A stretch of DNA of 64,000 nucleotides. Origin: Candidatus Poribacteria bacterium (GTDB lineage Bacteria; Poribacteria; WGA-4E; WGA-3G). The stretch is from NCBI GenBank assembly GCA_963663765.2, contig CAXXUA010000005.1, forward strand, positions 96,001 to 160,000, read 5' to 3'. The number at the start of each line of letters is the position of its first letter. Position 1 is the first letter of the stretch. Under the pieces are notes generated by a model. That model saw nothing but the letters and a program-made list of their open reading frames with translations. It was not told the origin of the DNA and did not search any database. The translations under genes and the position numbers were made by a program. Shown one piece after another: positions 1,050 through 62,399 of this stretch.

Positions 1050-1171
1050 CAGGACTTACGCACCCAACGGTAGGCGTGCTTTGTAAGCGCGCTGGAAGCA
1101 CAAATAATGTTGAAAATTACATCATTTTCATCACAATTCTTGATTAAATCATGAAAACTGCGTAAGTCCTA
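1050..1171. mobile_element. MITE family A (TIR CAGGACTTACGCA), empty allele
   Basis: CAGGACTTACGCA...TGCGTAAGTCCTA, flanked by a TTTGG duplication. Near-identical shell at 15629-15845. Confidence 0.85.
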
Positions 1172-10202: not shown

Positions 10203-10319
10203 CAGGACTTATGCAATTTACAGCACTTATTAAGTTCTCAGCGCGCTTACAAAGCGCCAAATCAACGGTATGAATACCATTTAGGTATTCCCCGCCTACC
10301 GTTTAGTGCGTAAGTCATG
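10203..10319. mobile_element. MITE family A at the glnA stop codon, carrying a 36-bp micro-element
   Basis: CAGGACTTATGCA...TGCGTAAGTCATG. GTCCTAA duplicated at 10196-10202 and 10320-10326. Confidence 0.8.
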
Positions 10320-15628: not shown

Positions 15629-15845
15629 CAGGACTTATGCACCCAACGGTTGGCGGGGAATGCCTAAAGAAGCATGCGCGTATGGCATGCTCCATGATTC
15701 ATACCCGGGGAATACCATAAGGTATTCATACCGTTGATTACTTGATTTGGTGCTTTGTAAGCGCGCTGGAAGCACAAATAATGTTGAAAATTACATCCTT
15801 TTCAGCACAATTCTTAATTAAATCATGAAAACTGCGTAAGTCCTG
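15629..15845. mobile_element. MITE family A, filled allele with a 95-bp nested insertion
   Basis: Same shell as 1050-1171 plus an insert at 15656-15750. Confidence 0.85.
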
Positions 15846-16465: not shown

Positions 16466-16813
16466 AACGTTGGGTATTTCTCCAGATTCTTTTCTCAACA
16501 AGGTCTTATTATCATAACACCATTAACATAAAATGTCAAGAATAATAAATGTCTGAACCAATTGATTTCAATTATCAAAATGTACTCTTGTTGTAAGAAT
16601 TTTTATCTCTGATTTTCCCTTTTTCTGTATGCAGGAAATGCTTCTGTTTATCACACCTGTACCAAACGTAAAATTTTTTAGTTGTTTTTTTCGTGATTTT
16701 CGTGTTTTTTTCAAAAGCCTTCTCAATCCTGTTGTGATATAGGTTTATGAAGGTTTTACGATTTTACGAAATTTTGAAAAAAACAACTAAATGGATTATT
16801 TATCGTTTTTTTG

Positions 16814-16918
16814 TTACAACCTATCTCATAAATGGTAGGAGGGGTTTCTAACCCCGATTTACTCAACACGTGAGCCAGTGAATTTGAAAATAAATCGTAT
16901 TTATGAGATACGCTGTAG
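16814..16918. mobile_element. MITE-like shell carrying a GTAG REP
   Basis: TACAACCTATCTCATAAAT...ATTTATGAGATACGCTGTA around GTAGGAGGGGTTTCTAACCCCGAT. Second copy at about 29123-29225. Confidence 0.65.
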
Positions 16919-25945: not shown

Positions 25946-26103
25946 GGGCTATTTAGTTTTCCTAATTTTTGGATTTATGAAAAAGAAACCCCGCGGCAGG
26001 AACGACTCGGGGAATGCCAAAAGGCATTCATACCGTTGATTTCTTGATTTACCAGTCACGATTTTCTCAGAAAACGGGTAAAATGGGTAAAACTGAATAA
26101 CCC
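25946..26103. mobile_element. MITE (TIR GGGYTATTYAGTTT) with 13-bp TSD
   Basis: TGTCAAAAAGACT at 25933-25945 and 26104-26116. Micro-element inside at 26010. Related shell at about 59627-59913. Confidence 0.8.
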
Positions 26104-40121: not shown

Positions 40122-40131
40122 AATGTTTCTG

Positions 40132-40324
40132 ATGAAGATTAATTTATTAATTCAGTAATAAATATTTCTCACACGGTAGGCGTGCTTTGTAAGCGCGCTG
40201 CTCGAATTTTCATGTGTCAGCGCGCTTACAAAGCACCAAATCAACGGTATGAATGCCATTTAGGCATTCCCCGCCTACCACGGTGGGTTAGATAGAATTT
40301 CCTACTTTATTTATAAATTTTCAT
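40132..40324. mobile_element. MITE family B (TIR ATGAAGATTAAT) with a REP pair, one REP interrupted by the micro-element
   Basis: Homologous to 51107-51375 and 51661-51816. Confidence 0.8.
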
Positions 40325-40699
40325 AAAAACATTATAGCATAAATTCATATTTAAGTGACTTATTTATGGTGAAAATTGAAAATAAGTATACATTTCTACA
40401 ATTTACCATATTGGCTGTAAGTGATTTTGGTGCGCCTTGTTTGTATTAGAAAAAAGTTTGGAATTCATTTGTGTGTATGGGTAATATTATACCTTATGGT
40501 GGTGTGGGTTTGTTGTGTTTTTTGTATTGAGAACAGTATAAATCATGTAAAATCTATTGGGATTCTATTGTTGAAATGTCCTCCAACAAAGATGTTTCGT
40601 GTCATATTGAATGCCTATATTATCATTACCGTATAGGTATTACACTAAAAATAGGTTTTTTTATAGAAAATGCGATTCTAAACCGAATTGGGTTTCAAT

Positions 40700-41921: not shown

Positions 41922-42920
41922 TTATGTTTCTTCATTTGCAAACAGATCCATTTGTTTTGCAGTATTTCCCCCATTTTGTGCTTGAAGTCGTTCAGGATCC
42001 GCTAACATTTCAACAACATCACCAAGTAGATTAGGGGAGAATGGAATCGCTCCTTTCCGAATGAGTTGACGTGTGCCATCACTCTTGTGATTACCAGCAG
42101 ACCAATGACATGCGAAAACGGGTCGGTCTTGAAGCTGCGCGTATCGGGCTGCATGCATTGCACCCCCATCTATGGAAGTTTCAACCACTATGGTTGCAAA
42201 AGAGAGACCACTAATAATACGATTTCGCATCACAAGATTGGCTGGTGTTGGTGGTGTTGGGAAAGGATGTTCTGAAAAAAGACACCCTGTTTCATATATT
42301 TTTAGCGCAAGATCTCGGTTTTCACGCGGATAAATTGTTGATAAATCTGTTGATAAAACACCTATTGTTGTACCATTTAACCCTAATGCACCGAAGTGAG
42401 CTGTGGTATCTATACCCACAGCAAGACCACTCACAATTGTCCAACCTTTTTCAACTAAACGCATAGAAAGTTCAAGTGTTACATTAATACTGGCAGCAGC
42501 TGGAAGTTTGCTTCCCACAATCGCCACGCACTTGTCGCTTACTTTAGATAACTCTCCTGTTTTGCAAAGTACCATCGGGGCATCTTGCGAAGATTTTAGA
42601 AGCGTTGGATATTCCACATCATGAGGAAAAAGAACTTTTATTCCCTGTTCGGATAGTTCGTCTAACCTTTGTCGCAATTCCGGGAATCTGTTCCGCACAA
42701 CCAAAATACGTGACGCTAACATTGGGTTGAATTGCGGTAGCTGCGCTATCTCAACTAAATCTGCATCAAAAACGTGTTCTGCACTACCGAAACGTTCTAA
42801 CAAACGTCTAATCCGAACCGCACCTATACCTTCGACTGAAGCAAGCGCAAAAAGATAATCCCGGCTTTTCTTATCGACAGTTTCTCCAAAATGTGACATA
42901 AATTCTACAAATACTTTCAA
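41922..42920 (-). CDS. dprA: DNA-processing protein DprA
   Basis: VAIVGS, IVSGLAVGIDTTAH and RNRIISGLS motifs; N-terminal GIG HhH. Start may be the ATG at 42899. Confidence 0.92.
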   Translation of the reverse strand: MKVFVEFMSHFGETVDKKSRDYLFALASVEGIGAVRIRRLLERFGSAEHVFDADLVEIAQLPQFNPMLASRILVVRNRFPELRQRLDELSEQGIKVLFPHDVEYPTLLKSSQDAPMVLCKTGELSKVSDKCVAIVGSKLPAAASINVTLELSMRLVEKGWTIVSGLAVGIDTTAHFGALGLNGTTIGVLSTDLSTIYPRENRDLALKIYETGCLFSEHPFPTPPTPANLVMRNRIISGLSFATIVVETSIDGGAMHAARYAQLQDRPVFACHWSAGNHKSDGTRQLIRKGAIPFSPNLLGDVVEMLADPERLQAQNGGNTAKQMDLFANEET

Positions 42921-43244
42921 CTAATGAAAACTCTAAAAACACAATCCATAAACAACTTTCATTGCATTATTACACAGACTAATGTACATTTCAACAATTA
43001 TATCAATTGTTGACAGTTTTTTCAACCGAAAGTTTTATTAAGAGTCAAAACATGACTTTCTTTAAATTTGGAATTATGATACAATAAATTCTGCTGATAC
43101 ACTAATAAACTACCCATAAGTTTATTGGAAATAAATGTATTGTATTTTAATAGTTCATTGGTTTGTTAAATTTCCTTAGATTCATCTGAATGTTACCTAT
43201 AAATATTACCAACCTTATTCATGGTTAAGAAGAGATAATTTATA

Positions 43245-44660
43245 ATGAAAACTACATTTCTGATTTGTATCTTTACAGTTGCCATCATACTACCCATCAC
43301 GCAAACTTATGGTGCAGTAACATCTGTCGGTGAAATCAACGTTGTTGATGAATCAAAGGGCATTGTTCCTGCAAGTTCAACCATACCCTTAATTATTACA
43401 CTTATAATCGATAGGTCAAGGGCAGTACCTGGTGAGGAAATTAAAACAATTGAAATTCTTATGCCCCCAGGTTATGAACCGCTTATATCGGATTTTGAAT
43501 ATGTTTTACATGATGGAGAACAAGAATCCGCAACAGCAGTTGTTTCCAGTGGCAATGTTTTACGCATACAACTTTCCGAACTGATCCTTGACAAGAATGA
43601 GAATTTTTCTTATGAAATCATTTTTGACTGTAAAACTCCTAATAATTTTGGTGAAACCAAATTCCAAGTGAGACTCCGAAACCTCCAGGACGATCCAATT
43701 GGTGAATTCATAAAACCAGGGGAAGCGGATGGAAAACAGAATAACAACGATTTTACTTTGCAGGTGATCCCAAATGTACCCCCTACCGCCGTTTCAGGTT
43801 TCACTGCCGAAGCAGACAAGAATGGTGAAAACGATGTCACCCTACGTTGGCAAAAATCCTCTGACCCAGATGTCAGTGGATACCTTATCTATCGGGATAC
43901 GGAATTTCAAATTGATGTGATTGAACGTGAGGCAACCACATACCGTGATATAAATATTCTACCTGGAAACCACACTTATGAGATTGCCGCTTACAAGATC
44001 AAAACATTACAATCTGAAAGATCTCCAATACAGAACGTGACTGTTACAGAAGATACCGCTGCTCCGAAACCACCAACAGCCATCCGTATCAGTACCTCTG
44101 GTGATGGTGTGGAAGTGTTATGGAAACCAAGCATTAGTCGGGATGTCGTAAAATACCATATCCTGTTTGGATCAGTGGATACTGTAATACTCAAAACCTT
44201 ACCCGAACGCGAAAATTTAACGCCACACCCTGACGATGTTGCAGAAGGTTTTACACATAGATATATTCATAGTCAGGTTTTGTCAACGGGGAGTTTCACC
44301 TATGCAGTCATCGCAATAGATGAAGCTGGAAACGAATCCGAGCAGATACAGAAAAGATACCGTATCTTTGATAAACCATATCCCAATCCGTTTACACCTC
44401 TCTCACCAGACCCAGATTTTAACACAGTTGTTTTCTCAAAACGTAACATTGATGACGTAGAAGAGGAAGGTGAATTCAATCTGATGCTCTACAATTTGAA
44501 TGGTGTCCTCGTCAAAACCATAACTGCCGAAATTAGTGAAATTGAACTTAAATGGGATGGTAAAAACGAAAACGGAGAAATCGTTGAAAGCGGTATTTAT
44601 ATATATCAATTGCAGGTTGGTGACAACTACAAGACAGGCACAATTATTGTAGCAAAATAG
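43245..44660 (+). CDS. Secreted FN3-domain protein with C-terminal FlgD-Ig/T9SS-CTD-like domain
   Basis: Signal peptide, two FN3-like repeats, PYPNPFTP...WDGKNENGEIVESGIYIYQL. Confidence 0.8.
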   Translation: MKTTFLICIFTVAIILPITQTYGAVTSVGEINVVDESKGIVPASSTIPLIITLIIDRSRAVPGEEIKTIEILMPPGYEPLISDFEYVLHDGEQESATAVVSSGNVLRIQLSELILDKNENFSYEIIFDCKTPNNFGETKFQVRLRNLQDDPIGEFIKPGEADGKQNNNDFTLQVIPNVPPTAVSGFTAEADKNGENDVTLRWQKSSDPDVSGYLIYRDTEFQIDVIEREATTYRDINILPGNHTYEIAAYKIKTLQSERSPIQNVTVTEDTAAPKPPTAIRISTSGDGVEVLWKPSISRDVVKYHILFGSVDTVILKTLPERENLTPHPDDVAEGFTHRYIHSQVLSTGSFTYAVIAIDEAGNESEQIQKRYRIFDKPYPNPFTPLSPDPDFNTVVFSKRNIDDVEEEGEFNLMLYNLNGVLVKTITAEISEIELKWDGKNENGEIVESGIYIYQLQVGDNYKTGTIIVAK

Positions 44661-44876
44661 AATGGTATTAAACTTGTTCAGTATCATACCATCTATTTTT
44701 TGTCTTTTAATGTTGCATCCAGCTTAAGCCTGTTTTTACACAAGACTAAACATATTAGAAGATTTCAAATTAGGTTAATTTGGAATTAGAAATATTTGAC
44801 ATATTGTCAGATACACAGTTATACTATCATAAACAAGACTCTACTCAGAGATATTTAAGTTGTAAAGGAGTTTTTA

Positions 44877-45899
44877 ATGTACAAAAATAAGTCGTCACTT
44901 TATATGTATAGAATCATTAGACACGCACTCATTTTAGTTTTCATAATTGCTTTTCCTGCAATGGCAGGATGGGTGGTCATGCAAAATAAGGATCCTGAAT
45001 TTAGGGATTATATGGCAATCGCATTTACGAATAATAAAAACGGATGGGTTGCAGGATCGGCATTAGCTGAAGATTTTGAAAATCCAGGATTTATTGGTTA
45101 TACCAAGAACGGCGGAACAACATGGCAGAAATCTGATATAAAACTCGCAGCGGACCTGACCGGAATTTACTTCTTAGATGAGAAAAATGGATGGGTCATT
45201 GGGGCAAAAGGACTAATCGCTAATACCTCCAACGGAAAAGACTGGGAAATACAAATTAGTAAGATTGATGCTACACTAAAGAGTGTCTATTTCGTTGATA
45301 AGGATGTTGGGTATGCTGCAGGAGAAAATGATACGATTCTATCTACAACAAATGGTGGACGACGATGGGTAATCCTTGGAGGTGGACAAGTCGGAGCTAT
45401 CGGTGATAACGATGCAAGTATGTTCAATGCCGTTCAGTTTATTAGCAAAGAAACCGGATGGATCGCGGGTGTTCGAGTTTTTCCATCAACAAAAACACAG
45501 AAAAGTATTATCCAGAAAACAATGGATAGTGGACGGACTTGGGTAGTACAAGAAACAGGCACTGAGGATATTTTAGAGGATATCTTCTTCATTGATGACA
45601 CAACAGGATGGGCTGTCGGTGAAAACGGTTTGATACTACAAACCCAAAATGGTGGTGACCTATGGACACCGCAAACAAGTGGAACCGAAGAAAAACTCAG
45701 TAGTGTCAGGTTCGCAGACAAAAACATGGGATGGGCAGTCGGAGGTGATTACGGAGTCGGAGTCGTACTCAGCACAACTGATGGCGGAGAAACATGGGAA
45801 GTAGAAGAATCCAAGGAAAAAATGGTAAAAGTGTTTGTACTTGACAAGAAAAACGTTTGGTTAGCAGGTACAAGTGGCATCATCTTAAAGACAGAATAA
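44877..45899 (+). CDS. YCF48/BNR-repeat beta-propeller protein
   Basis: Repeated F.D...GWAVG..G.I..T.NGG.TW units and a signal peptide. Confidence 0.9.
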   Translation: MYKNKSSLYMYRIIRHALILVFIIAFPAMAGWVVMQNKDPEFRDYMAIAFTNNKNGWVAGSALAEDFENPGFIGYTKNGGTTWQKSDIKLAADLTGIYFLDEKNGWVIGAKGLIANTSNGKDWEIQISKIDATLKSVYFVDKDVGYAAGENDTILSTTNGGRRWVILGGGQVGAIGDNDASMFNAVQFISKETGWIAGVRVFPSTKTQKSIIQKTMDSGRTWVVQETGTEDILEDIFFIDDTTGWAVGENGLILQTQNGGDLWTPQTSGTEEKLSSVRFADKNMGWAVGGDYGVGVVLSTTDGGETWEVEESKEKMVKVFVLDKKNVWLAGTSGIILKTE

Positions 45900-46013
45900 C
45901 GAACAAAAATCAATAGAATATTCTGGATCAGGAATAGATGTATACAACCTGAAGCACCATTCATTAGGGCAACTCGCGAAAAAAACTTGCGACTGATAGA
46001 CAGGAGGAACATT

Positions 46014-47186
46014 TTGACTAGTCCTACATTCGCCAAGCGCATGAGCCGCTTGGGAACCGAATCCGCTTTTGAGGTATTAGCAAAAGCAAAAAGCTTAGAA
46101 GCACAAGGCAAAAATATTATTCACTTAGAGATAGGTCAGCCAGACTTTTCGACTCCCATGAATGTGTGTGAAGCCGCATTCAAGGCAATGAAAGACGGTC
46201 ATACTGGATACTGCCCATCAGCAGGATTACCTGAATTTAGAGAAGTTGTCGCACAGCATATCACTGATACGCGCGGTGTTGAAATTCATCCCGATGAAGT
46301 CACAGTCACACCCGGGGCAAAACCTATTATCTTTTTCACTATTCTTGCATTAGTTGATGAAGGTGATGAGGTGATTTATCCCGAACCCGGATTCCCCGTC
46401 TATGAATCTGTAATAGATTTTATAGGGGGAAAAGCTGTACCACTTCCGCTTCTTGAAGAAGTAGATTTTCGTTTTCGCATAGATGACCTAATTGCATCTA
46501 TCACGGAAAAGACGAAACTACTGATCCTTAATTCTCCACAGAACCCAACAGGTGGCACCCTCACAACAGCAGACCTACATGCCATAGCAGACCAAGCACA
46601 AAAGCATAACTTCTATATCCTTGCAGACGAAATCTATTCGCGCCTGCTCTATGAAGGCACACATCAAAGTATTCTTAATCTCCCTGGCATGAAAGAAAAA
46701 ACTATACTGATTGACGGTCATTCAAAAACCTATGCTATGACAGGCTGGAGGCTTGGATACGGTATCGCACCACGCGAAATCGCTGACAAAATTACCCGGT
46801 TAACAATAAACTCCAATTCATGCACTGCTACCTTCACACAAATTGCTGGGATTGAAGCACTGACTGGACCGCAAACCTTTGTCACACAGATGGTGAACGA
46901 ATTCAAGAAACGTCGTGATGTCATTGTAGATGGATTAAATGCAATTGGTGGTATAACTTGTATCAAGCCGTTGGGATCGTTCTACGTTTTCCCGAATGTC
47001 ACACAACTGCCGCTTCCTTGTGAAGAATTGGCTGATTATCTGATGGACGAAGTGGGCGTTGCACTACTGCCAGGTACTGCTTTCGGTAAATACGGAGACG
47101 GGTATCTTCGACTTTCTTACGCCAATTCCTTGGATAACATCAATGATGCACTCAGTCGCATACAATCTGCTATTTCAAAGTTGTAG
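46014..47186 (+). CDS. Aspartate aminotransferase family (class I) enzyme
   Basis: GQPDF, NSPQNPTG, DEIY and SKTYAMTGWRLG motifs. AGGAGG SD before the TTG at 46014. Confidence 0.93.
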   Translation: MTSPTFAKRMSRLGTESAFEVLAKAKSLEAQGKNIIHLEIGQPDFSTPMNVCEAAFKAMKDGHTGYCPSAGLPEFREVVAQHITDTRGVEIHPDEVTVTPGAKPIIFFTILALVDEGDEVIYPEPGFPVYESVIDFIGGKAVPLPLLEEVDFRFRIDDLIASITEKTKLLILNSPQNPTGGTLTTADLHAIADQAQKHNFYILADEIYSRLLYEGTHQSILNLPGMKEKTILIDGHSKTYAMTGWRLGYGIAPREIADKITRLTINSNSCTATFTQIAGIEALTGPQTFVTQMVNEFKKRRDVIVDGLNAIGGITCIKPLGSFYVFPNVTQLPLPCEELADYLMDEVGVALLPGTAFGKYGDGYLRLSYANSLDNINDALSRIQSAISKL

Positions 47187-47206
47187 ACCTTGGTAAGGAC
47201 AAAAGT

Positions 47207-48124
47207 ATGACTGGCAAGGCAACTGCACGTATTCCAGCAAGTACCACAAACCTGGGACCAGGATTTGATGTACTGGGACTTGCTTTGCAACTATACAGTA
47301 CAATAACCTTAGACATCACAGGCAACAGTTCTGAAGTTGTTGTAAGTGGTATAGATGAGGACAAAATACCGAGCAGTACTGATCACATCGCATTTCAAGC
47401 AGTAGAATTGATCTATCAAAGAAGCGGAATCCCTATACCCAATGGTTTAAAACTAACCATAGCAAACGGTATACCTGCTATTCGGGGTTTAGGTGGCAGC
47501 GGCACTGCAATCCTTGGAGGATTACTAACGGCAAATGTGATTTGTGGAAATAAGTTTACGCCTTCAGAAATCCTCAACTTTGCATCAGTTATAGAAGGAC
47601 ATCCAGATAATGTTGCAGCCTCTTTATATGGGGGGTTAGTAATTTCGGTACAAGAAAAAGAACACATCCATACAATCCAATTAAAATGTGATCCTAATCT
47701 TAATGTTGTCCTTGCAATTCCCGATTTTACATTGTCAACAAAAAAAGCTCGGAACGTTTTGCCAAAAACCGTTGATTTTGCTGATGCCATCTACAACATC
47801 AGTCGAAGTTCTCTACTTGTCGCAAGCATAGCAACAGGAAAATTGGATATGCTCTCAGTGGCAATGAATGATAAAATACATCAACCTTATCGTAGTTCCC
47901 TAATTCCCGGTTTTGATGATGTCGTTGAAGCTGCAACATCAGCAGGTGCATTAAGTATCGCATTAAGTGGGGCAGGTCCCACCATCGCAGCATACTGTAC
48001 GCAGAACATGGACAAAGTTGGAAGCAAGATGCGGACAGTATTGCAAAAGCATAATATCTCTTGTGAAATTAAAGTACTCGCAGCCGACCTTGAAGGCGCA
48101 AAAGTACAAGTTCATAATGGTTAA
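47207..48124 (+). CDS. thrB: Homoserine kinase
   Basis: PASTTNLGPGFDVLG, EGHPDNV, HQPYR and SGAGP motifs. Confidence 0.96.
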   Translation: MTGKATARIPASTTNLGPGFDVLGLALQLYSTITLDITGNSSEVVVSGIDEDKIPSSTDHIAFQAVELIYQRSGIPIPNGLKLTIANGIPAIRGLGGSGTAILGGLLTANVICGNKFTPSEILNFASVIEGHPDNVAASLYGGLVISVQEKEHIHTIQLKCDPNLNVVLAIPDFTLSTKKARNVLPKTVDFADAIYNISRSSLLVASIATGKLDMLSVAMNDKIHQPYRSSLIPGFDDVVEAATSAGALSIALSGAGPTIAAYCTQNMDKVGSKMRTVLQKHNISCEIKVLAADLEGAKVQVHNG

Positions 48125-48190
48125 CATCTATTGTTTTGATTAAATCCTATAGCAACTATTGTCAGAAATATGTGACGTTAGGAAAAATAA

Positions 48191-50920
48191 ATGGCAAATT
48201 ATTACGCAGAAAGCATCTCATTTCTGCTGAACCAATTTAATACAGACTTGGAAGCCGGTTTAAGCCATGCAGAAGTAGAGAAGTTGAGGGAACGTTTTGG
48301 TGAAAACAAACCGAATTTCAAAATGGATAATGTACATATAGTACCATTTCTTCAGCAAATGCTAAACTGGAGATTATTCCTATTATTAATCACCACAGTG
48401 GTCAGTGTAATCTTCTTTGATAACAGGTTGCTCACCTTGCTAATTGGCACAATTTTGATTCTAACCTTTTGTTGGGGAATTATAGTCACAATCAATTTCA
48501 AACGTAAACGTAGACACTACAAAACGCTATTCAACCACACTGTTTCCGTAATACGCCAAGGTAAACAAGAAAAGTGCCTACCTTCCGACATCGTACCTGG
48601 AGACTTGCTGCTACTTAGACAAGGTAACTACATCCCCGCAGATGCACGTATCGTTCAAGCAGATGGACTAACTGTCAATGAATCTGCCCTATTCGGAAGT
48701 AGCGGTTCAGCAACAAAAACCGTAAAACAGATTAGTGAAAACGGACTATCACCTGAAAAACAGACAAACATGGTCTTTGGTGGTACTTATGTTGATGCTG
48801 GAATAGGACATGCTGTTGTGGTCAGAATAGGAAACGAACTGGAGATGTACCAGAACCCTAACAACACACGACAGATGCCTAATGAGATGACAATCGCAGA
48901 AAATCAGATAAACTTCTTCAGAGATATTCTGAAAGTTACTGGTATTGTTTTAGGGGGAATCGCCGTTTCTATTTATTGGTGGCAAAACTCACAGCAGAAC
49001 GTTTCACCGAATTGGGAAGAATTCATCCAAGTCGGTTTAATCTTTGCAATCGCTGCTACGCCTTATAACCTTTCCTTGCTTCTACACATCATCCTTGAAA
49101 ATAGAACCATAAATCTAATAAAAAAAGGTATTGTACTTCGGAATAGGCATTTCTTTGAAAAACTGAACCGACTCACTGCTTTCTGCACAGATGAAAAAGG
49201 TATCGCAAGTACAACTTCGCTTACTATTTCCAACATCTTCGTTGATGAACAGATTATCAATCGATCCGTATGGGAAAAATGGGTGAAATCTCTGGAATCT
49301 CAATCACAAGAAGAAATAAGTAAGCGAGTCAACAATATCCCACCAGGATTCCACATTCCACAGGGGGCGCCCGGATTAGTCTTGACAGCAGGATTAGGAA
49401 CTTCAGGTGAACGCTATTATGATAGAACTGATATTGATCACGCACATCAGCATGTAATACAAAATACTATGGAACAACTTGGATACAAACTAACCGACTT
49501 GACTCTAAATATGAAACTCATAGCTGAATACCCATGGACACCAAACTTTGGCTATGAACTTCATGTATTTGAATCGGGCGAAAACGAATATCTAAACATT
49601 CTATTCGGTGATGCGCACAACGTGCTTGAAGCTTGTGATTCTATACTCATAAATGGTGAAGTAACAGAACTTCGCTATGATCAGTATGAACTCTGTCATG
49701 AAACTCTCAACTATATGCAAAATGCAAGGGATACGGTTTACGGTGTAGCATCCATAGATTCTAACATGCCTTTTACACCTCACGACGTGTATGGTCCCTC
49801 TACTTTTCTGGGGTTCATCAGTTTTTCTGTCACTGATATCAAAGAGACAAAAGAGGTCGTAAAATCATTTCTTGATACTGGTATAAAGGTAATTCTATTA
49901 AGTGAAAGTGATGAGTTAACGACGACAGACTTAGCAAAAGAACTCGGTCTCATCCACACACGAAACGCTGTCGGTACAAGACAAGAACTCATGCAACTTA
50001 ATACCCAAGAATTCGACCAAGAAGTACCAAATTGGAATGCGTACTCACAACCCACCCAGGAACAGCGCAGAAATATCGTACTCAGTCTAAAACGACACAA
50101 CCACTCGATCGGTTATTTAGGGCAAAGTTCCATCGACCAACGCGCAATGACTACTGCTGACTTGGTTTTTGCTGATACAAGATATGCAACCCATTTTGCA
50201 CAAGACCATGCGGATTGTTTGATTATTGACAAAGGTTTTAAAGCAGTTAAAGATTGCTTACTCTATGCACGCGAAGCATATCTAAATCTTGCTGGCTCAA
50301 TACGATGGTGCCTCTCTTGCACACTAGCACAGTTATTGACTGTCCTCTTTGGACTAATCTTGCAAGTAGGGTTCAACTTTGAAATGCCACTTACACTCAC
50401 TCAAGTAATCTGGGTACAGTTTCTGACAACGATGATCCCAGCAATAGGTTTAGGTTACGAACAGATTTTTCTTAATGAGACACAACACCACCCGAGCAGA
50501 AGAACAAACCTGTTACCAAAAACGGCTGTGATGGACATTATCTGTAGAAGCCTTGGTATAAGTCTAATGACAATAATTCACTTTCTTGTATTAACATCTA
50601 CTGCTACTGAATCCAACCTTGAACAAGCACGTACCGCAGCCTGCACTACATTGATCTGTACACAGGTGCTTTCATATTTCCAATGTGCACGCTATCCGTG
50701 GGAGTCGTTATTTAAAAGGATGTTCGCAAACTTCCGTCTACTCTTAGCTCTTATATTCGCTATCGGTCTACACGTAGCAGCAATGTACTTTGAACCAATT
50801 CAGACTATTTTAGATATAGTTCCACTTCAGAACGATTGGATCATTACAGCCTTATGTAGTGTAATTTTGTTGTTGTTACCATTGAATTTGGCAATAAACC
50901 CACGAAAAGAAAGTAATTGA
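48191..50920 (+). CDS. Degenerate P-type (P2-like) ATPase homolog
   Basis: Full P2 topology (VPGD, IPADAR, about 10 TM), but DKTGT is DEKGI, TGES is FGSS and GDGVND is GQSSID. Confidence 0.85.
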   Translation: MANYYAESISFLLNQFNTDLEAGLSHAEVEKLRERFGENKPNFKMDNVHIVPFLQQMLNWRLFLLLITTVVSVIFFDNRLLTLLIGTILILTFCWGIIVTINFKRKRRHYKTLFNHTVSVIRQGKQEKCLPSDIVPGDLLLLRQGNYIPADARIVQADGLTVNESALFGSSGSATKTVKQISENGLSPEKQTNMVFGGTYVDAGIGHAVVVRIGNELEMYQNPNNTRQMPNEMTIAENQINFFRDILKVTGIVLGGIAVSIYWWQNSQQNVSPNWEEFIQVGLIFAIAATPYNLSLLLHIILENRTINLIKKGIVLRNRHFFEKLNRLTAFCTDEKGIASTTSLTISNIFVDEQIINRSVWEKWVKSLESQSQEEISKRVNNIPPGFHIPQGAPGLVLTAGLGTSGERYYDRTDIDHAHQHVIQNTMEQLGYKLTDLTLNMKLIAEYPWTPNFGYELHVFESGENEYLNILFGDAHNVLEACDSILINGEVTELRYDQYELCHETLNYMQNARDTVYGVASIDSNMPFTPHDVYGPSTFLGFISFSVTDIKETKEVVKSFLDTGIKVILLSESDELTTTDLAKELGLIHTRNAVGTRQELMQLNTQEFDQEVPNWNAYSQPTQEQRRNIVLSLKRHNHSIGYLGQSSIDQRAMTTADLVFADTRYATHFAQDHADCLIIDKGFKAVKDCLLYAREAYLNLAGSIRWCLSCTLAQLLTVLFGLILQVGFNFEMPLTLTQVIWVQFLTTMIPAIGLGYEQIFLNETQHHPSRRTNLLPKTAVMDIICRSLGISLMTIIHFLVLTSTATESNLEQARTAACTTLICTQVLSYFQCARYPWESLFKRMFANFRLLLALIFAIGLHVAAMYFEPIQTILDIVPLQNDWIITALCSVILLLLPLNLAINPRKESN

Positions 50921-51106
50921 ACCCCGTAAACACAACTGAAATTCAGACCAATAATTCCAATAATTTTCAAATACACTACTGTGAAGTCCCTGTAATAATT
51001 CCAATTCTAATATGGTGAATCTTATAGCAGATTTTAAAATACTTGGACATTGCTACCGGTCCGGTTGGAAGACAGTTCCTACCGCATTTCCTGTAGCACA
51101 AACTTT

Positions 51107-51375
51107 ATTAAGATTAATTTATTAAACGGGTAATCATTTATTTTTCACTCGGTAGGCGGGGAATGCCTAAAGAAGCATGCGCGTATGGCATGCTCCATGA
51201 TTCATACCCGGGGAATGCCTAAATGGCATTCATACCGTTGATTTCTTGATTTCTTGATTACTTGATTTGGTGCTTTGTAAGCGCGCTGATATGTCAAAAC
51301 CCAACAGCGCGCTTACAAAGCACGCCTACCGTGGCTGGATTAGGAGAATTACCTAATTTATTTATTAATCTTCAT
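51107..51375. mobile_element. MITE family B inserted in a REP loop, with multiply nested micro-elements
   Basis: Flanks rejoin as GTAGCACAAACTTT|TTAGTTTATG. Nested insert at 51159-51270. Confidence 0.8.
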
Positions 51376-51660
51376 TTAGTTTATGTCGTATTTGCGCAAA
51401 CTGAAAGTTTACGCTACAGAGGTGTAAGGATAATTACAAATATTATTAAATAAATGGCATTTCTACCCACGGTAGATGCGGTTTCCATACCAATGCATAA
51501 TCTCAAACCGTTGATTTTTAGGAATACCTATTTAATTTTAACGAGTACACTTGTCATAACTTTTAATAAATTCTAATCTAAATAATCAATGGCACTTCAC
51601 TTCGTGTCTTAGTTCTTACTCGCTATGAGTTAATAAGCAATTTCCTGTAACGTAAACTTT

Positions 51661-51816
51661 ATGAAGATTAATTTATTAATTGGGTAATAAATATTTCTCA
51701 TACGGTAGGCGTGCTTTGTAAGCGCGCTCTTGGGACTTGATGTACCAGCGCGCTTACAAAGCACGCCTACCAGGGTAGGTTAGATAAAATATCCTAATTA
51801 ATTTTATAATCTTCAT
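51661..51816. mobile_element. MITE family B, empty REP pair, inserted in a REP loop
   Basis: Flanks rejoin as GTAACGTAAACTTT|TCAGTTTGCG. Confidence 0.8.
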
Positions 51817-51948
51817 TCAGTTTGCGGTCCTCGGATGCACAAAAAAATATAATGTGATACAAAGTGCGGTTATGTGAACAGAATTCAAAACATTAAGGAT
51901 TTCATATCACTTACACCGAGTTAACGTTAACGTACAAAGGAGTATATA

Positions 51949-54897
51949 ATGAAAACAATTTTGTTTATTGTATCCATCGCAGTACTAATCGGTTTAGCTG
52001 CTGGATGCGATGAAATGCAAGATCAAGTTATGAAACCTATAACGATGCCTGACGACGAAGTTATTACAGAAGATGACATGGTAACATCCATGGGTACAAT
52101 GAAGGATCCCTCTACAGAAACTGATGATACAGAAGAGGATACCCCTGTCGAAACGCAAACACCCGATGCATTATTCGTAAGTGCGACACCCGCAAGCGGA
52201 GAAATTTCGGTAAACGGGAGTATCACCATTGAATTTGACAACGACCCGGGGGACGTATCAGCGAGTGAAGGGACAGTCACAGGCTCCGGTAATACACGGA
52301 CTATTAGTGGTCCTTTTACTGTTGGTTCGCTTGCCCTCACGATTACATGGCCAAACGGGGATGGCAGCCACACACTGAACTATAACGTCGTTGCCGATGA
52401 TACAACCCCGCCAATGGTTACAACAAGTAGCACTACTAACGGTGCTGTAGACATTGACCCTGCTACAGTCTTTCAAAATGGAATCACTGTCACTTTCAAC
52501 GAAACAATTATCAGCGGAACACTCAGATTGTTGAAAAACGGAGAAAATGTCGGGTGGACATTAAGTATTCAAAATAATACAATCACACTCACACCAAACA
52601 CTGGTCAAGAACTCAGCCACGATACAATGTATCAGATCGTCGGCACTGTAAAAGACGCAGCCAATAACGAAACTGATGTGAGTATCTCCTTCACAACCAA
52701 ATCAGAACCTGCACCACCTCCTCCGCAAACGCTTGTCGCAGCGTTTGTAAGTGCGTCACCCGCAAGCGGAGATACTTCGGAATACGGGGGTATCACCATT
52801 GAATTTGACAACGACCCGGGCGATGTAACAACGAGTGAAGGGACAGTCACAGGCTCCGGAAATTCACGGACTATTAGTGGTCCTTTTACTGTTGGTTCGC
52901 TTACCATCACGATTACATGGCCAAATGGGAATGGCAGCCACACACTGAACTATAACGTCGTTGCCGATGATACAACCTCGCCAATGCTTACAACCAGTAG
53001 CACTACTAACGGTGCTGTAGACATTGACCCTGCTACAGTGTTTGAAAATGGATTCACTGTCACTTTCAACGAAACGATTATCAGCGGAACACTCAGATTG
53101 TTGAAAAACGGAGAAAATGTCGGGTGGACTTCAAGTATTCAAAATAATACAATCACACTCACACCAAACGCTGATCAAAAACTCAGCCACGATACAATGT
53201 ATCAGATCGTTGGCACTGTAAAAGACGCAGCCGATAATGAAACCGATGTGAGCATCTCCTTCACAACCAAATCAGCACCTGCACCACCCCCTCCGCAAAC
53301 ACCTGTCGCTGCGTTTGTAAGTGCGACACCCGCAAGTGGGAATATTTCGGAAAACGGGAGTATCACCATCAATTTTGACAACGACCCAGGTGCCGTAACA
53401 GCGGGTAGTGGGACAGTCACAGGCTCCGGAAATTCACGGACTATTAGTGGTCCTTTTACTGTTGGATCGCTTGCCCTCACGATTACATGGCCAAATGGGA
53501 ATGGCAGCCACACACTGAACTATAACGTCGTTGCCGATGATACAACCTCGCCAATGCTTACAACCAGTAGCACTACTAACGGTGCTGTAGACATTGACCC
53601 TGCTACAGTGTTTGAAAATGGATTCACTGTCACTTTCAACGAAACGATTATCAGCGGAACACTCAGATTGTTGAAAAACGGAGAAAATGTCGGGTGGACT
53701 TCAAGTATTCAAAATAATACAATCACACTCACACCAAACGCTGGTCAAGAACTCAACCACGATACAATGTATCAGATCGTGGGCACTGTAAAAGACGCAG
53801 CCGATAATGAAACCGATGTGAGCATCTCCTTCACAACTAAATCAGCACCTGCACCACCCCCTCCGCAAACACCTGTCGCTGCGTTTGTAAGTGCAACACC
53901 CGCAAGTGGGAATATTTCGGAAAACGGGAGTATCACCATCAATTTTGACAACGACCCAGGTGCCGTAACAGCGAGTAGTGGGACAGTCACAGGCTCCGGA
54001 AATTCACGGACTATTAGTGGTCCTTTTACTGTTGGTTCGCTTGCCCTCACCATTACATGGCCAAATGGGAATGGCAGCCACACGTTGAACTATAACGTCG
54101 TTGCCGATGATACAACCTCGCCAATGGTTACAACAAGTAGCACTACTAACGGTGCTGTAGACATTGACCCTGCTACACTGTTTGAAAATGGATTTACTGT
54201 CACTTTCAACGAAACGATTATCAGCGGAACACTGAGATTGTTGAAAAACGGAGAAAATGTCGGGTGGACTTCAAGTATTCAAAATAATACAATCACACTC
54301 ACACCAAACGCTGGTCAAGAACTCAGCCACGATACAATGTATCAGATCGTCGGCACTGTAAAAGACGCAGCCGATAACGAAACTGATGTGAGCATCTCCT
54401 TCACAACCAAATCAGAACCTGCACCAGTTGTGACACTGGATCCAGGTGAGGGCTTAAGTAACGGTGCCGAAGCACCCGATTTTGAATTGTTGGATGGTGA
54501 TGGAAATACGTACAGTCTTTCGGAGTATAGTGGGATAGTCGTGATTGTATTCTATCGGGGTGGTTGGTGACCGTATTGTCGTGAGCAACTCAGTGAGTTG
54601 CAAGAATACGCCAGTCAAATTTCAGAGGCAGGTGCATCGCTCATTGCAATCAGTTCCGATAGCCAAAGTGCTACCAAAGAGACAGTTCAAAATCTCAGCC
54701 TCTCGTTCACGGTACTATCTGATAGCAGCATAACGGCAATTTCTGCATACAACGTCGTTGATCAAGGCAACACTAGAATTGCCAGACCCGCAACCTATAT
54801 TATCAAATCAGACGGTACGGTCGGATGGAAATCTCTTGGTTCTACTTCGACAAGGGTTTCAACCGCTGACACTCTAACTGCATTGGGTGAACTCTAA
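51949..54897 (+). CDS. Putative selenoprotein: lipoprotein with 4 Ig-like repeats and a C-terminal AhpC/TSA-type redoxin domain (UPYC), 982 aa
   Basis: Lipobox AAGC. In-frame TGA at 54568-54570 in FYRGGW*PYCREQL. Frame continues to TAA at 54897 through AISSD, LSD and RPATYII. Confidence 0.88.
52156..54426 (+). repeat. Four tandem 570-bp (190-aa) intragenic repeats
   Basis: Units start at 52156, 52726, 53296 and 53866 and are near-identical in DNA. Confidence 0.97.
54572..54610 (+). promoter_or_regulatory. Candidate bacterial SECIS element
   Basis: CGTATT(54572)...GCAACTC-AGT-GAGTTGC...AATACG(54610). G-containing apical loop about 22 nt after the UGA. Confidence 0.75.
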
Positions 54898-54949
54898 AGA
54901 GTGCGTGATGATACGTCTGGTATTCATCAATATGATATCTTGGGTACGA

Positions 54950-55071
54950 TCTCTTGTGGGCGGGTTTTCAATCCCGATTTAACAATTTGAATCCTGCGAA
55001 ATCGGTGTTTGTAACACCGATTTCGCAGGATTTATGCTGTTTTTTCGGGGTTACAAGACCTCTCCCACAAG
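54950..55071. repeat. REP pair enclosing a perfect 20-bp-arm hairpin
   Basis: CTTGTGGG...CCCACAAG flanks. AATCCTGCGAAATCGGTGTT-tgt-AACACCGATTTCGCAGGATT at 54990-55032. Confidence 0.8.
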
Positions 55072-55344
55072 ATGATATATCCTAAAGTTACCAACTATAG
55101 GATTGAGATTTCGTCAGCTCATAGAGGGCATCCTTGCAAAAAATGTTATGCAGTAAGGAAACCTATCCAAATTTTCAAGAAGGAAGAGATCCATCTCAAT
55201 AATTCTGACGATATAATGAAGGTAAAACTCACAATAGACATTCTTTTTTTTAGGTGTATAACCAAATACGACCTTATACCAATTCAAATAAATCTTGTCT
55301 CATTAAGGAATTCTACTGTTTACTAGCAGGGGGTTACTCTCTTC

Positions 55345-55388
55345 GGTAGGAGCGACCTCCCGGTCGCGACCGGGAGGTCGCTCCTACC
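55345..55388. repeat. Perfect 44-bp palindrome made of two fused GTAG REPs
   Basis: GGTAGGAGCGACCTCCCGGTCG|CGACCGGGAGGTCGCTCCTACC. A spaced relative lies at about 62141-62203. Confidence 0.9.
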
Positions 55389-55677
55389 AGATTTCCGCTG
55401 CTAATGAGACATTATCACATGAAAATGGTATTACTTGTCATTAGACTATCTGACACCTATTGAATTCTAACAAGAACATCTGTCTTAACTTTTAATAAAT
55501 TCTGGTCTAAATAATCAATAGTAATTCAGACCTTTTTCTTAACAGAAATTCATGGTATAATAGAAATATAGCATTGTTGTTTTACACCTAATATAAATAC
55601 TTTCATTCAGTACCCCTGAATGTTGATACCACACTTTCGCATATTGATCATTTGTAACATCTTATAGAGAGAATCTC

Positions 55678-56481
55678 ATGAACCTATTCAAATCCCTAAA
55701 GCACCAAGTTGAAAAAAAGTTCTACAAGGTGTATCAAAAACAACTGGAAGCAGAAGCAGATACATGGAATATCCCGCGTCATATAGGGGTAATCCTTGAT
55801 GGAAACCGGCGATATGCAAAAGCAAGTGGGTTAGACAATATAATAAAAGGCCACTATGAAGGTGCAGATAAACTTGAGGAAGTGCTTCATTGGTGTGATG
55901 AACTGGGTGTTGAAATTTTCTCTATTTGGATTTTTTCTCTTGACAACTTCAACCGCGCTGACGATGAAGTGGAAGGAATTTTGGGATTAATTGAACGAAA
56001 AATGCGTGATTTAGTAACGACTGAAGGATTACATACAAATCAAATTAAAGTCAGAGCCATGGGACAGATTGAACAACTACCCAAAAGCCTTCAAGAAGCT
56101 ATCCGACAAGCAGAAGAAGCGACCAAAAACTATGACAAATTTATCCTGAACGTTGCTGTTGCCTATGGAGGCCGCGAAGAGATAATTGAAGCGTTCCGTG
56201 GACATCTAAATGCAGAAATTCACAAAGGGAAAAATGCTGAACAAATTGCAGACGATTTGAGTGTTGACAAAATCGCACCATACTTATACACTTCAAACCT
56301 GCCTGACCCAGAACTAATTATCCGAACCAGTGGAGAAGTTAGATTGTCTGGATTCTTGTTATGGCAAAGCGTCTACTCAGAATTCTATTTTTGTGATACA
56401 TACTGGCCATCATTTAGAAAGATTGATTTTCTCCGTGCCATACGCGACTATAGCCACAGAAAACGAAGATTTGGCAAATAA
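55678..56481 (+). CDS. uppS: cis-isoprenyl diphosphate synthase
   Basis: HIGVILDGNRR, FSLDNFNR, YGGREEI and RTSGEVRLSGFLLWQ motifs. Confidence 0.93.
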   Translation: MNLFKSLKHQVEKKFYKVYQKQLEAEADTWNIPRHIGVILDGNRRYAKASGLDNIIKGHYEGADKLEEVLHWCDELGVEIFSIWIFSLDNFNRADDEVEGILGLIERKMRDLVTTEGLHTNQIKVRAMGQIEQLPKSLQEAIRQAEEATKNYDKFILNVAVAYGGREEIIEAFRGHLNAEIHKGKNAEQIADDLSVDKIAPYLYTSNLPDPELIIRTSGEVRLSGFLLWQSVYSEFYFCDTYWPSFRKIDFLRAIRDYSHRKRRFGK

Positions 56482-56487
56482 CAACGG

Positions 56488-57654
56488 ATGCAGCTTATGA
56501 CAAATATTATATTATCTAAAGTACAGTTGAAAATACCTATTTTACTCTTATCACTACTTCTATTATTAGGAACAAACTACACGTATGCCCAGTCCCGCAC
56601 ACTCATTGCAGAAAAGACCAAAGCATCCACCGTCCTAATAGAAATTGAAGATGCAAAAGGGAAATCTTCACAAGGCAGTGGTTTTTTTATAGACAACGGA
56701 CTCGTAGCAACTAATTATCATGTTGTCAACGGGGCAAATGTTGGAACTGCAAAATTAGTCCTATCTAAAACCAACAAACAACTGAAAAAATATTCAATTG
56801 AAGGTGTTGTTGCAACTGATAAAGAAAAAGACCTTGCAATTGTAAAAGTCACTGGACTTTATGCACTTCCTCTTCCTTTGGGAAACAGTGATACTGTAAA
56901 AGACGGGCAAATTGTTTATGCTGTCGGTAATCCGCGTGGGTTCGAAGGCACATTCTCTTCTGGTGAAATTAGTAATATCCTTCCTAACGGAACGCGGAGA
57001 ATCAAAGGTAAAGTACTCCAAATTACTGCAGCCATTTCTCAAGGCAGTAGTGGTGGTGCAGTGGTAAATCAATGGGGACAAGTCATCGGTATAGTATCTG
57101 AAACACGTGAAGATGGACAAAACCTAAATTTCGCTATTCCTGTAAATGCTTTGAAGTCACTTATTAGAGAAATTGGTCCTGTTAGACCCTTTCCATCCAA
57201 ACCTACTTCACACAGAAATAAGAAACAACTTCCGTACCCCCTTCTTCTAATCGTAATGAGTGCAGCAGTCTTTGGTATAATATGGTTTTTACCCACTGTA
57301 ATAATAGAGAAGTGGTCAACTGCAGCATGGATCGCTTTACTCATCGGTAATATCAAAACTTGGCTTACGGCTATCCTAAGATCTGATTCATTACCAGACG
57401 GTATCAAATCTTTTCTCACGTCGGCACCTCCTCAGAACATTTACCATGCTTTAGACTGTTCAGATTGCATTGTTGGACTAATATTTTATGTAATTAAATT
57501 GCCGACATATCTTGTTTTTCTTGCTTTTCTTCTTGGAATTACCAATAAAGTCATACCAAAATTTGAACTGAATGGCTTTTTCAATACTTTCTTTGTCGCA
57601 CTATTGATTGTTATAACTGAAATAGTGCTACAGATGCTCTTGATAGGAGTATAA
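56488..57654 (+). CDS. Trypsin-like (S1C) serine protease fused to a multi-TM C-terminal domain
   Basis: TNYHVV, DLAIVKV and ISQGSSGG catalytic triad; about 4 TM segments at the C-terminus. Confidence 0.85.
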   Translation: MQLMTNIILSKVQLKIPILLLSLLLLLGTNYTYAQSRTLIAEKTKASTVLIEIEDAKGKSSQGSGFFIDNGLVATNYHVVNGANVGTAKLVLSKTNKQLKKYSIEGVVATDKEKDLAIVKVTGLYALPLPLGNSDTVKDGQIVYAVGNPRGFEGTFSSGEISNILPNGTRRIKGKVLQITAAISQGSSGGAVVNQWGQVIGIVSETREDGQNLNFAIPVNALKSLIREIGPVRPFPSKPTSHRNKKQLPYPLLLIVMSAAVFGIIWFLPTVIIEKWSTAAWIALLIGNIKTWLTAILRSDSLPDGIKSFLTSAPPQNIYHALDCSDCIVGLIFYVIKLPTYLVFLAFLLGITNKVIPKFELNGFFNTFFVALLIVITEIVLQMLLIGV

Positions 57655-57674
57655 CTGATATAACGGAGAAAAAT

Positions 57675-58442: not shown

Positions 58443-58531
58443 AACAGCACATTTTTGAACACAATTCCTACTATTTTACATCTGAAAGGAAGTAGATATG
58501 CAAACAGAAAACCAAAGACAAAAATTGGGAG

Positions 58532-59488: not shown

Positions 59489-60016
59489 ACTTCACGAATC
59501 CAAAAATCAATAAATATACAACAACCCATCTGCAGTGTTATCCCAAATTAACGTGATTTGTATATTTTTTAGTGCCGAGGACAGGGGCGGGCACAGAGCC
59601 CCGCGCTTACGAGTTAGGTTAATTTGGTATTATTTAGTTTTAAGAGTTTTCTGTTATTTAGATTTACTGAAAGTTAATACACGGGTTCGGTTTCCTAACC
59701 GAACTTTATACATCAATTTTAGATTATTGAAACATGAACATCGCTCTTCAGTCCCGCCAAATGCCATACGGGGAATGCCTTAATGGCATTCATACCGTTG
59801 ATTTGGCGCATTTGGCGTTGATTTGGTAGGGACTATAGAACTAGACAAGATGGTATCACATAAAATTAACGACATAACAAAATATTATCAAAATTATTGA
59901 AAACTAAATAACCCTGACCCATCTGTGCAATTCTTGACAAATTAGACACAACAACTAAAAAATAGATGGAGCAATAAATCCCTCATAATCAAAACGGTAA
60001 GCAATCATATACATTG

Positions 60017-61858: not shown

Positions 61859-61889
61859 AACTATCCTTATTATGCGATTATTATTGCAC

Positions 61890-62047
61890 CAGGACTTACG
61901 CAGTTTTCATGATTTAATCCTGAATCATGACAGAAATGATGTAATTTTCATCATTTATTAGGTTTCCAGCGCGCTTACAAAGCACCAAATCAACGGTATG
62001 AATGCCATTAAGGCATTCCCCGCCTACCGTTTTGGGCGTAAGTCCAG
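61890..62047. mobile_element. MITE family A, inverted, with a single 36-bp micro-element
   Basis: CAGGACTTACGCA...GGCGTAAGTCCAG with TTGCAC/TTACAC flanks. Insert at 61985-62020. Confidence 0.8.
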
Positions 62048-62399
62048 TTACACGTTTTAATTAAGGTTTGATTTTGAAATGAATTATACATTTCTTCAGT
62101 TTGCGAGGTAGGAACTATGTTGTTTCGCCTTTTACATTCGGTAGGAGCAACCTCCCGGTCGAGATTTATTCTAAACGGTCGTGACAAGGAGGTCGTTCCT
62201 ACCTGTTAAATGTGTTATTAATTCCAATATCTACCTTAGATTGAACTGAGTGTCACAGTTAAACCGTACGCATATCTGTGACACCTATTATACCAAATAA
62301 ACGGAATTTATCTTTTTCCAACGGTAGGTGCGGTTTCCTAACCGCACACTTAGCAAGACGAATCACGCTAATTGGGTATTAGTTGTGTTCAGATTGACA

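Follow-up and report, generated by a model that had tools for sequence, protein, structure and literature searches.

A 35-36-base hairpin-and-tail repeat of Candidatus Poribacteria that seems to rank among the smallest known mobile DNA elements

Small dispersed repeats (SDRs) of Nostoc, and the mosaics of repetitive extragenic palindromic (REP) sequences and bacterial interspersed mosaic elements (BIMEs), appear to be the closest known kinds to the element treated here, a repeat unit of 35-36 bases consisting of a hairpin and a tail, which recurs in a 64,000-nucleotide stretch of a Candidatus Poribacteria genome (assembly GCA_963663765.2, contig CAXXUA010000005.1, positions 96,001 to 160,000; hereafter the window). 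As described in papers citing the original work, SDR5 of Nostoc is 21 bases long and inserts between the third and fourth base of HIP1, after GCG (PMC5861425, PMC4390886, PMC13756078). As far as these accounts describe them, SDRs resemble the unit: they are very short and dispersed, show signs of being mobile, have no known mobiliser, and insert precisely, without duplicating the target, at one set point within another repeat; the unit is unlike them in occurring in Poribacteria, in its length of 35-36 bases, in its hairpin followed by a conserved single-stranded tail that stacks, and in using an A-S-S-C target in REP hosts of the GTAG type. Compared by description, it seems to behave most like an SDR. 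Because its host is a Poribacteria symbiont, the likeness to the Nostoc repeats drawn in the original prediction stands as an analogy and falls as kinship. SDR4-6 of Nostoc, in work by Elhai and colleagues from 2008, reportedly nest within themselves; to our knowledge the Nostoc SDRs are the only described parallel, and we know of no mechanism put forward since 2008.

REP sequences, their inverted doublets (REPINs) with REP-associated tyrosine transposases (RAYTs), and BIME mosaics share several traits with the unit in published descriptions (PMC3116915, PMC2817692, PMC3733652): a short, high-copy intergenic hairpin, a conserved stretch beside the stem, confinement to a lineage and a mosaic arrangement, and the unit moreover lives among GTAG REPs with RAYT genes beside the arrays. 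On the same descriptions, it differs from them in that GTAG (or CGTC) stands at the foot of REP hairpins whereas the bottom strand of the unit has GTAT; units are mostly singlets, symmetric doublets being rare; no cognate RAYT is flanked by them, and they are abundant in genomes without a Y1 enzyme; and the unit inserts into REPs without itself being a cognate REP. Palindrome-associated miniature derivatives of IS200/IS605 insertion sequences likewise have no terminal inverted repeats, no target duplication, a subterminal hairpin and a single-strand logic, and insert in one orientation 3' of a short fixed motif, as the unit does, but the unit has one hairpin, not two, and an inexact 3' junction, shares no ends with the TnpA-encoding copies of its own genome, and abounds in three genomes from which TnpA is absent. 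IS110 elements that target REPs (e.g. ISPpu9) are alike in entering REPs with no or minimal duplication, whereas the DEDD domain of that family (PF01548) was found in none of five genomes, the window genome included (control genomes matched in 6 of 14), and 36 bases are far too few for its non-coding parts. With ends, GGGGAAT.. and ..TTGATTT, that do not form an inverted pair, and with its target unduplicated, the unit also lies outside classical MITEs (miniature inverted-repeat transposable elements). It is, by their defining features, a member of none of these four groups.

Anatomy, target sites and nesting

In the window, the 17-base core occurs seven times with at most one mismatch (10260-, 15723+, 26025+, 40239-, 51227+, 59787+ and 61988-), against a mean of 0.31 in shuffled windows, none of 100 of which reached seven. 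A 26-base empty REP site is present five times and never in shuffles: at 1068+, 40174+ and 51703+, where it had been predicted, and also at 51306- and 51747-, the last counted with one mismatch. Three single 36-base units (Table 1) fill this site without any duplicated flank, by reading of the sequence, their boundary being ambiguous by one G. Two MITEs (1050-1170/1 and 15629-15844/5) differ by exactly 95 bases (15656-15750), the copies at 26010 and 59771 each follow CG in other contexts, and copies stacked upon one another with stacked TTGATT tails lie at 15656-15750 and 51159-51270, all as the original prediction had it; its broader description, an ultra-short, hairpin-dependent, non-autonomous repeat found without duplication in REPs, in MITEs and in itself, is supported as well.

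Across the window genome (6.35 Mb, 15 contigs, about 41% G+C), the unit has the form GGGGAATGCC-loop-GGCATTCATACC-GTTGATTT plus 0-1 base, that is, in order, GGGG, a 7-bp stem, a loop of 4-7 bases, the stem complement, ATACC and GTTGATTT, to a total of 35 bases, mostly followed by one further G. The pattern GGGG-GAATGCC-loop-GGCATTC-ATACC-(GTTGATTT)(CTTGATTT)n fits 377 simple units, whose loops fall into discrete types (TAAAT, AAAAG, TTAAT, CATACGC and others). The stem change to GAATACC/GGTATTC, predicted from the window to covary, is paired in 16 of these and half-changed in 7, and GAATGCT/AGCATTC is paired in 19 and half-changed in 4; with 35 doubly compensated stems against 11 half-changed ones, the hairpin is under constraint. 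The hairpin of the unit at 40236-40271 folds at -7.5 kcal/mol on the top strand and -7.3 kcal/mol on the bottom strand. GGG precedes the stem on the top strand and GTAT on the bottom strand, GTAG being carried by the hosts and not by the unit; read on the bottom strand, ..CAACGGTAT plus hairpin is near the head, ..CAACGGTAG plus hairpin, of the REP family that hosts most copies (REP-a). In 45 copies the unit takes a long form, which has an additional inner hairpin. The tail GTTGATT[TA] is common to sister elements with other, covarying hairpins; tail counts in the genome are 493 for the standard unit, 128 for U2, and 15 and 12 for two further types. U2 is a related micro-element of 34 bases with the hairpin CAAATGC/GCATTTG and the same GTTGATTTGG tail, inserted after the CG of a small palindrome, AGTCCCG^TAGGGAC, of which 598 empty copies are present genome-wide.

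The genome holds 338 perfect 20-base cores and 587 near ones (up to three mismatches), while a reversed control pattern gave 0-1. Their 160 distinct contexts of 9+9 bases group into 113 flank clusters, 69 of them in foreign hosts, and 45 of the 160 are matched exactly by an empty paralogue, without duplication. Of the 69 foreign-host clusters, 61 show C at position -1 and 59 show A at position -4. Units stand directly 3' of A-S-S-C; in REPs this is AGGC, which follows the GTAG head, and elsewhere it is ACCC or ATAC, with an AAGC flank too. The insertion after CG that had been proposed needs refining, the constant flank being A-S-S-C before GGGG rather than CG alone. Filled and empty sites usually differ by 36 bases between C and G, and in some hosts by 35 between C and C. 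At the REP-a site, 218 units are forward and none inverted, despite the symmetric C^G, and of the several CG sites of the host MITE only the two behind GTARGC carry the unit. Two simple accounts of the junctions were discarded: for a clean one-base duplication, no single model fits REP-a, nested and ACCC hosts together, and in a reading by eye as an integron attC-like site (inverted ..CAAC / GTTG..) the nested junction is incompatible with a G^TT crossover.

The unit also enters itself. Blocks with two heads have two tails in 45 of 59 cases, and blocks with one head have one tail in 240 of 335. The first tail of a stack starts with G and all later tails with C, in the order head-C-[head-G-tail]-C-tail, the junction G of the outer unit being replaced by C...C; because a position of the A-S-S-C type lies between a copy's own hairpin and its tail, stacks read head-C-head-G-tail-C-tail. 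Tandem copies number 14-30 cases in the genome, and in a relative, G010, two contigs (C91 and C94) carry head-to-tail arrays with a period of 35 (4 and 3 copies), period-36 pairs occurring elsewhere.

Other elements were seen within the unit. A MITE with the terminal inverted repeats ATGAAGATTAAT...ATTAATCTTCAT frames REP-a doublets in the window (40130-40330, 51100-51400, 51640-51820) and occurs elsewhere in the genome (C2:89.8k, C4:1092.7k, C5, C11); at six or more of its positions it interrupts the AT-rich loop of a unit, splitting the unit by 170-900 bases, so the loop is itself targeted by another element. A TTAAT loop on C15 (reverse-strand offset 259889) holds a further element, about 1.7 kb long, whose inverted ends are CCTACACTCCGCAG...CTGCGGAGTGTAGG, with CTTAAT apparently duplicated on both of its sides.

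Occurrence across genomes and contexts

A 32-base pattern of the unit, allowing at most one mismatch, was searched in 176 genomes of the phylum and was present in 38 of 39 genomes of its own genus and in 32 of 65 of one sister genus, in none of the 7 from the family's other genera and, as a single copy, in 1 of 65 outside the family; copy counts ranged from 0 to 252, highest in the window genome, and the reversed control pattern gave 0. The repeat is therefore specific to a lineage of Poribacteria, a family of micro-elements with a single hairpin whose home is two sister genera. The one perfect copy outside the family (G061, C13:7959-7990) could be a binning error or a transfer. The exact 20-base core was found in at least 91 stretches of named genome records, and among the matches listed all were metagenome-assembled genomes (MAGs) of Candidatus Poribacteria or of an uncultured bacterium; these records carry the unit in the same hosts and in others. 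No match was found in viral contigs, and the plasmid collection gave only chance matches (E about 5). A literature search on Poribacteria plus repeat terms, with supplements outside its scope, returned nothing relevant, which is no proof that the repeat is unpublished.

Within the window genome, the hosts of the unit are REPs of the GTAG type, and two such REP families are arrayed beside RAYT genes (NF047646, 122 bits). Nearly all copies lie inside other repeats and some in apparently unique palindromes. In-frame insertions into genes had been named as something to look for; no unit was found inside real coding sequence in the genome, and eight candidates were set aside as chance two-mismatch matches in a repeat protein or as frames running through repeat arrays. 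Unit regions are equally dense in all spacer classes, at 0.30 per kb of tandem, 0.29 of divergent and 0.28 of convergent spacer, and face either way relative to the neighbouring gene (158 vs 171), gene positions being taken from a crude open reading frame heuristic; there is no sign of a transcription-linked role. As to replication strand, judged by GC skew, forward and reverse copies numbered 116/148 vs 185/116, but the skew is too weak, and the contigs too much in disagreement (C15 opposite), for these counts to indicate a bias.

These data bear on the possibility that copies are kept because a host protein binds them or an RNA process reads them as a structural signal, with mobility only a secondary trait. 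The extreme conservation of the 3' 20 bases beside free loops and covarying stems would fit such a role, as would the high share of perfect copies even in genomes without candidate mobilisers (see below). The unit shows no preference for a spacer class, no orientation bias relative to genes and no match in an Rfam search, however, its copy number runs from 0 to 252 within one genus, and its pile-up into itself and into arrays looks selfish, and we regard a retained signal as very improbable.

Movement and candidate mobilisers

The unit is likely a mobile micro-element. Our preferred reading, held tentatively and a little short of evenly balanced, is that it resembles a REP or an SDR and travels in the form of folded single-stranded DNA, moved by an enzyme acting in trans. 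The unit would be folded as a single strand, a structure-specific nuclease-ligase supplied in trans would cut 5' and 3' of the single hairpin, and the excised unit would be rejoined behind a matching tetranucleotide. The fixed 5' tetranucleotide, the lack of duplication, the single orientation, the covarying hairpin and the REP-like bottom strand are features that suggest an HUH-like, single-strand process, and the RAYT genes with REP arrays in the window genome, one array including the unit, favour it too. RAYTs and IS200-type HUH enzymes cut and rejoin REPs in vitro. RAYTs are reported to cleave 5' and 3' of a single REP hairpin, the site being chosen via a tetranucleotide beside the stem (PMC8266576). 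That the mover is specifically a Y1 HUH enzyme seems possible, if doubtful.

The unit both moves by itself and is carried by its hosts. On a tree of 217 host-MITE backbones (89 columns, site columns removed), the filled state of one insertion site (site A) required 60 changes, compared with 58.6 ± 3.1 when shuffled, and is thus scattered at random, while a control single-nucleotide polymorphism (SNP) next to the site required 26 compared with 49.8, none of 500 shuffles being as low, and clusters. The filled state of the second site (site B) required 31 changes vs 34.3 shuffled (41 of 500 shuffles). Loop subfamilies and hosts are related many-to-many, the same loop being present in several hosts and several loops in one host, and either allele of the SNP beside the site can be filled (65 T, 11 C), which also favours independent movement. 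Given this scatter on the one MITE tree and the independent sites, in 113 flank clusters, the copies do not, at least for that MITE, descend from a single filled REP spread by MITEs, an outcome named beforehand as fatal to the original prediction. A large share of copy number comes from amplification of REPs, REPINs, MITEs and tandem arrays and from slippage of the 8-base tail. Copy counts are not event counts. Filled site-B MITEs nearly all share their loop type and a GTAGGC flank (29 filled vs 178 empty GTAAGC), and loops are likewise uniform within one 12-copy context and within each of two REP arrays.

A number of observations, given in this paragraph and in the account of enzymes below, weigh against movement as folded single-stranded DNA by an enzyme in trans. 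The unit's own strand has no GTAG. The 3' junction varies by 0-2 bases, and hosts with chimeric left and right flanks occur, neither of which is expected of clean transposition, and filled sites differ from the commonest empty allele at the junction itself (GTAAGC to GTAGGC, GTAGGAG to GTAGGCG, ACC-G to ACC-C..C). Gene conversion among paralogues could mimic part of the scatter of filled sites. At the orthologues of 10203-10318 and 15629-15845, the nearest species (G016) has no host at all; the latter MITE is absent from the orthologous spacer in all relatives seen, and in the nearest species an unrelated hairpin element stands there. Of 20 loci from G016, four have both flanks syntenic in the window genome, and the three that were aligned are all gains or losses of a whole host; at the fourth, judged by coordinates alone, the whole composite is absent. 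Among the loci compared, no filled/empty pair differing by the unit alone, whether allelic or orthologous, was found.

Much of this is what would be expected if the unit were a BIME-like mosaic module with no transposase of its own, spread by break repair or ectopic gene conversion among paralogous REPs and MITEs through the homology of these repeats, reaching new host types only rarely, by microhomology-guided template switching (GTAGG, ACC), and otherwise hitch-hiking. The confinement of nearly all copies to other repeats, outside real coding sequence, would agree with this, as would the junction bases, which look co-converted (in the third case as ACC-N to ACC-C), the variable 3' junction with chimeric flanks, the differences between species by whole hosts only, and the lack of a link between unit abundance and any transposase tested. 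The filled state is also tied to the allele of an adjacent SNP, both at site A (filled 65 T / 11 C, empty 95 T / 52 C; odds ratio 3.2, p 0.0009) and at site B (p 1e-5). Against such a module stand the strict orientation and the A-S-S-C rule across 69 unrelated host clusters, self-nesting that is precise and frequent with matched counts of heads and tails, and the copies in apparently unique palindromes; moreover, the 20-base core is identical in two genera whose orthologous genes are about 70-80% identical, which calls for a sequence-reading factor or for selection. Overall, we judge a conversion-driven module somewhat unlikely.

The enzymes suggested as movers in the original prediction, of the HUH type (IS200/IS605 or RAYT) or like IS110, found no backing in these genomes. 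The three IS605 copies of the window genome (TnpA + TnpB) have ends unrelated to the unit, no transposase bounded by unit ends was found in the genome, and no gene lies between the halves of split units, the splits being caused by other elements. RAYT matches were obtained in 32 of 40 genomes of the genus, and of the eight without a match seven still hold 19-96 copies of the unit. Among the points against the single-strand reading, the RAYT loci of relatives have a unit or tail within 1.5 kb in 0 of 30 cases; RAYT-bearing G003 and G108 have only 0 and 2 copies; and G001, G103 and G010, which gave no match to PF01797 (Y1 HUH, E up to 0.001) or to RAYT, contain 81, 89 and 94 perfect 20-mers. Their perfect/near shares are 0.49, 0.42 and 0.59, compared with 0.58 in the window genome and 0.35 in RAYT-bearing G017; with orthologous genes only about 70-80% identical, so high a share of perfect 20-mers implies recent copying or constraint. 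MAGs may miss repeat-flanked genes, G103 being assembled in one contig and G001 in four.

Two RAYT loci of the window genome adjoin REP arrays. An intact gene (NF047646, 122 bits; C4:620.1-623.5k) has five tandem units of about 120 bases upstream and, downstream, over 30 REP units that belong to two GTAG types. The second (C10:24.5-25.3k) is preceded by an array of CTGCAGGCGTGCTTTGTAAGCGCGC units, with one copy of our unit at the edge of the REP-a array, and probably represents the RAYT cognate to REP-a, the family hosting most copies; it is frameshifted and ended by the contig edge, a further point against the single-strand reading. A RAYT N-terminal fragment (C5:1704.5-1706k) was also noted, adjoining five tandem empty AGTCCCGTAGGGACGA repeats (598 copies genome-wide).

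The same genomes raise the possibility of a mobile unit served by enzymes of a family that has so far had no connection with elements of this kind. Both genera might share an unrecognised recombinase or nuclease, or a nuclease of the homing type might cut empty A-S-S-C/G sites, into which filled copies would then be copied. G001, G103 and G010 are rich in perfect copies without Y1 HUH or IS110 genes, and the serine recombinase (PF00239, about 70 bits, 202 aa), of which the window genome has five genes (C5:772k, C4:419k, C15:122k, C13:490k, C2:138.6k), is likewise missing from G103 and G010, G001 having one, and also from RAYT-bearing G017; the sharp distribution over two genera only and the co-conversion-like changes in the flanks, which are compatible with homing, point the same way. 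On the other side, clusters of copies lie between ordinary genes, gaps in MAGs can hide single-copy genes beside repeat arrays, and no candidate gene turned up, in a search made without a gene-by-genome profile. We consider an enzyme family new to such elements decidedly unlikely; the broader proposal of an autonomous-looking 35-36-base replicator that inserts without Y1 HUH, IS110 or serine enzymes, by a novel enzyme or by repair-driven homing instead, is unlikely as well, though a shade less so.

Copies in the window and their significance

The features of the window are collected in Table 1. The partner arm (51306-51331) of the REP-a doublet that holds the composite at 51159-51270 is empty, and the 44-base palindrome host, empty at 55343-55388, carries the unit at other places in the genome.

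Table 1. Copies of the unit, their hosts and empty sites in the 64-kb window
Feature	Position	Strand	Description
Same MITE as at 15629..15845, empty	1050..1171	+	contains empty REP-a site 1068-1093
Single 36-base unit	10257..10292	-	GAATACC/GGTATTC variant; REP-a site A of MITE-like host ~10203-10318
Host MITE, site A filled	15629..15845	+	ends AGGACTTA.GCA ... TGCGTAAGTCCT; 248 genome copies
Composite insert	15656..15750	+	95 bases; two-tail stack; fold -19 kcal/mol, z -2.45
Composite, E35 definition: outer long-form head	15655-15705		followed by junction C 15706
Composite, E35 definition: inner unit	15707-15740		GAATACC/GGTATTC stem, tail GTTGATTA
Composite, E35 definition: outer tail	15742-15748		TTGATTT, preceded by C 15741, then GG
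Unit with two tails	26009..26050	+	in diverged copy of GTAGGAGCGACC-type palindrome host
Single 36-base unit	40236..40271	-	one arm of REP-a inverted doublet (REPIN-like); other arm 40174-40199 empty
112-base composite	51159..51270	+	long-form head, standard unit, four tails; arm of REP-a doublet
REP-a inverted doublet, both arms empty	51703..51772	.	51703-51728 +, 51747-51772 -
Palindrome host, empty	55343..55388	.	perfect 44-base GGTAGGAGCGACCTCCCGGTCGC / GACCGGGAGGTCGCTCCTACC; ~620 copies genome-wide
U2 in palindrome	59757..59826	+	standard unit (59770/1-59805/6) in U2 loop after CATAC; fold z -4.03
Single 36-base unit	61985..62020	-	REP-a site A of MITE copy

In addition, a degenerate relative of the unit (..GGTAGATGCGGTTTCCATACC..AACCGTTGATTT) lies at 51461-51520, between two REP-a doublets, and the palindrome at 55343-55388 shows a depth spike in all four read runs. 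Another AT-rich dispersed repeat, of about 180 bases, occupies 16637-16815, and the nearest species has dozens of copies of it at 79-86% identity.

In four runs covering 42101-62100, contigs stop at every repeat (51179, 59659/59847, 61987). Repeats of this kind break short-read assemblies of sponge symbionts, and they shape the intergenic regions of an uncultured phylum. Elements of such size probe the minimum needed for DNA to act as a mobile unit, and this one offers handles for doing so in its invariant 5' junction, four-base target rule, strict orientation, covarying stem and stacked nesting, as well as in the roughly 100 related genomes, which form a natural series running from 0 to about 250 copies and include complete chromosomes without the usual suspect enzymes. 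If the proposal of a new enzyme or of a homing replicator were true, it would add a new way for DNA to move, at the lower limit of size.

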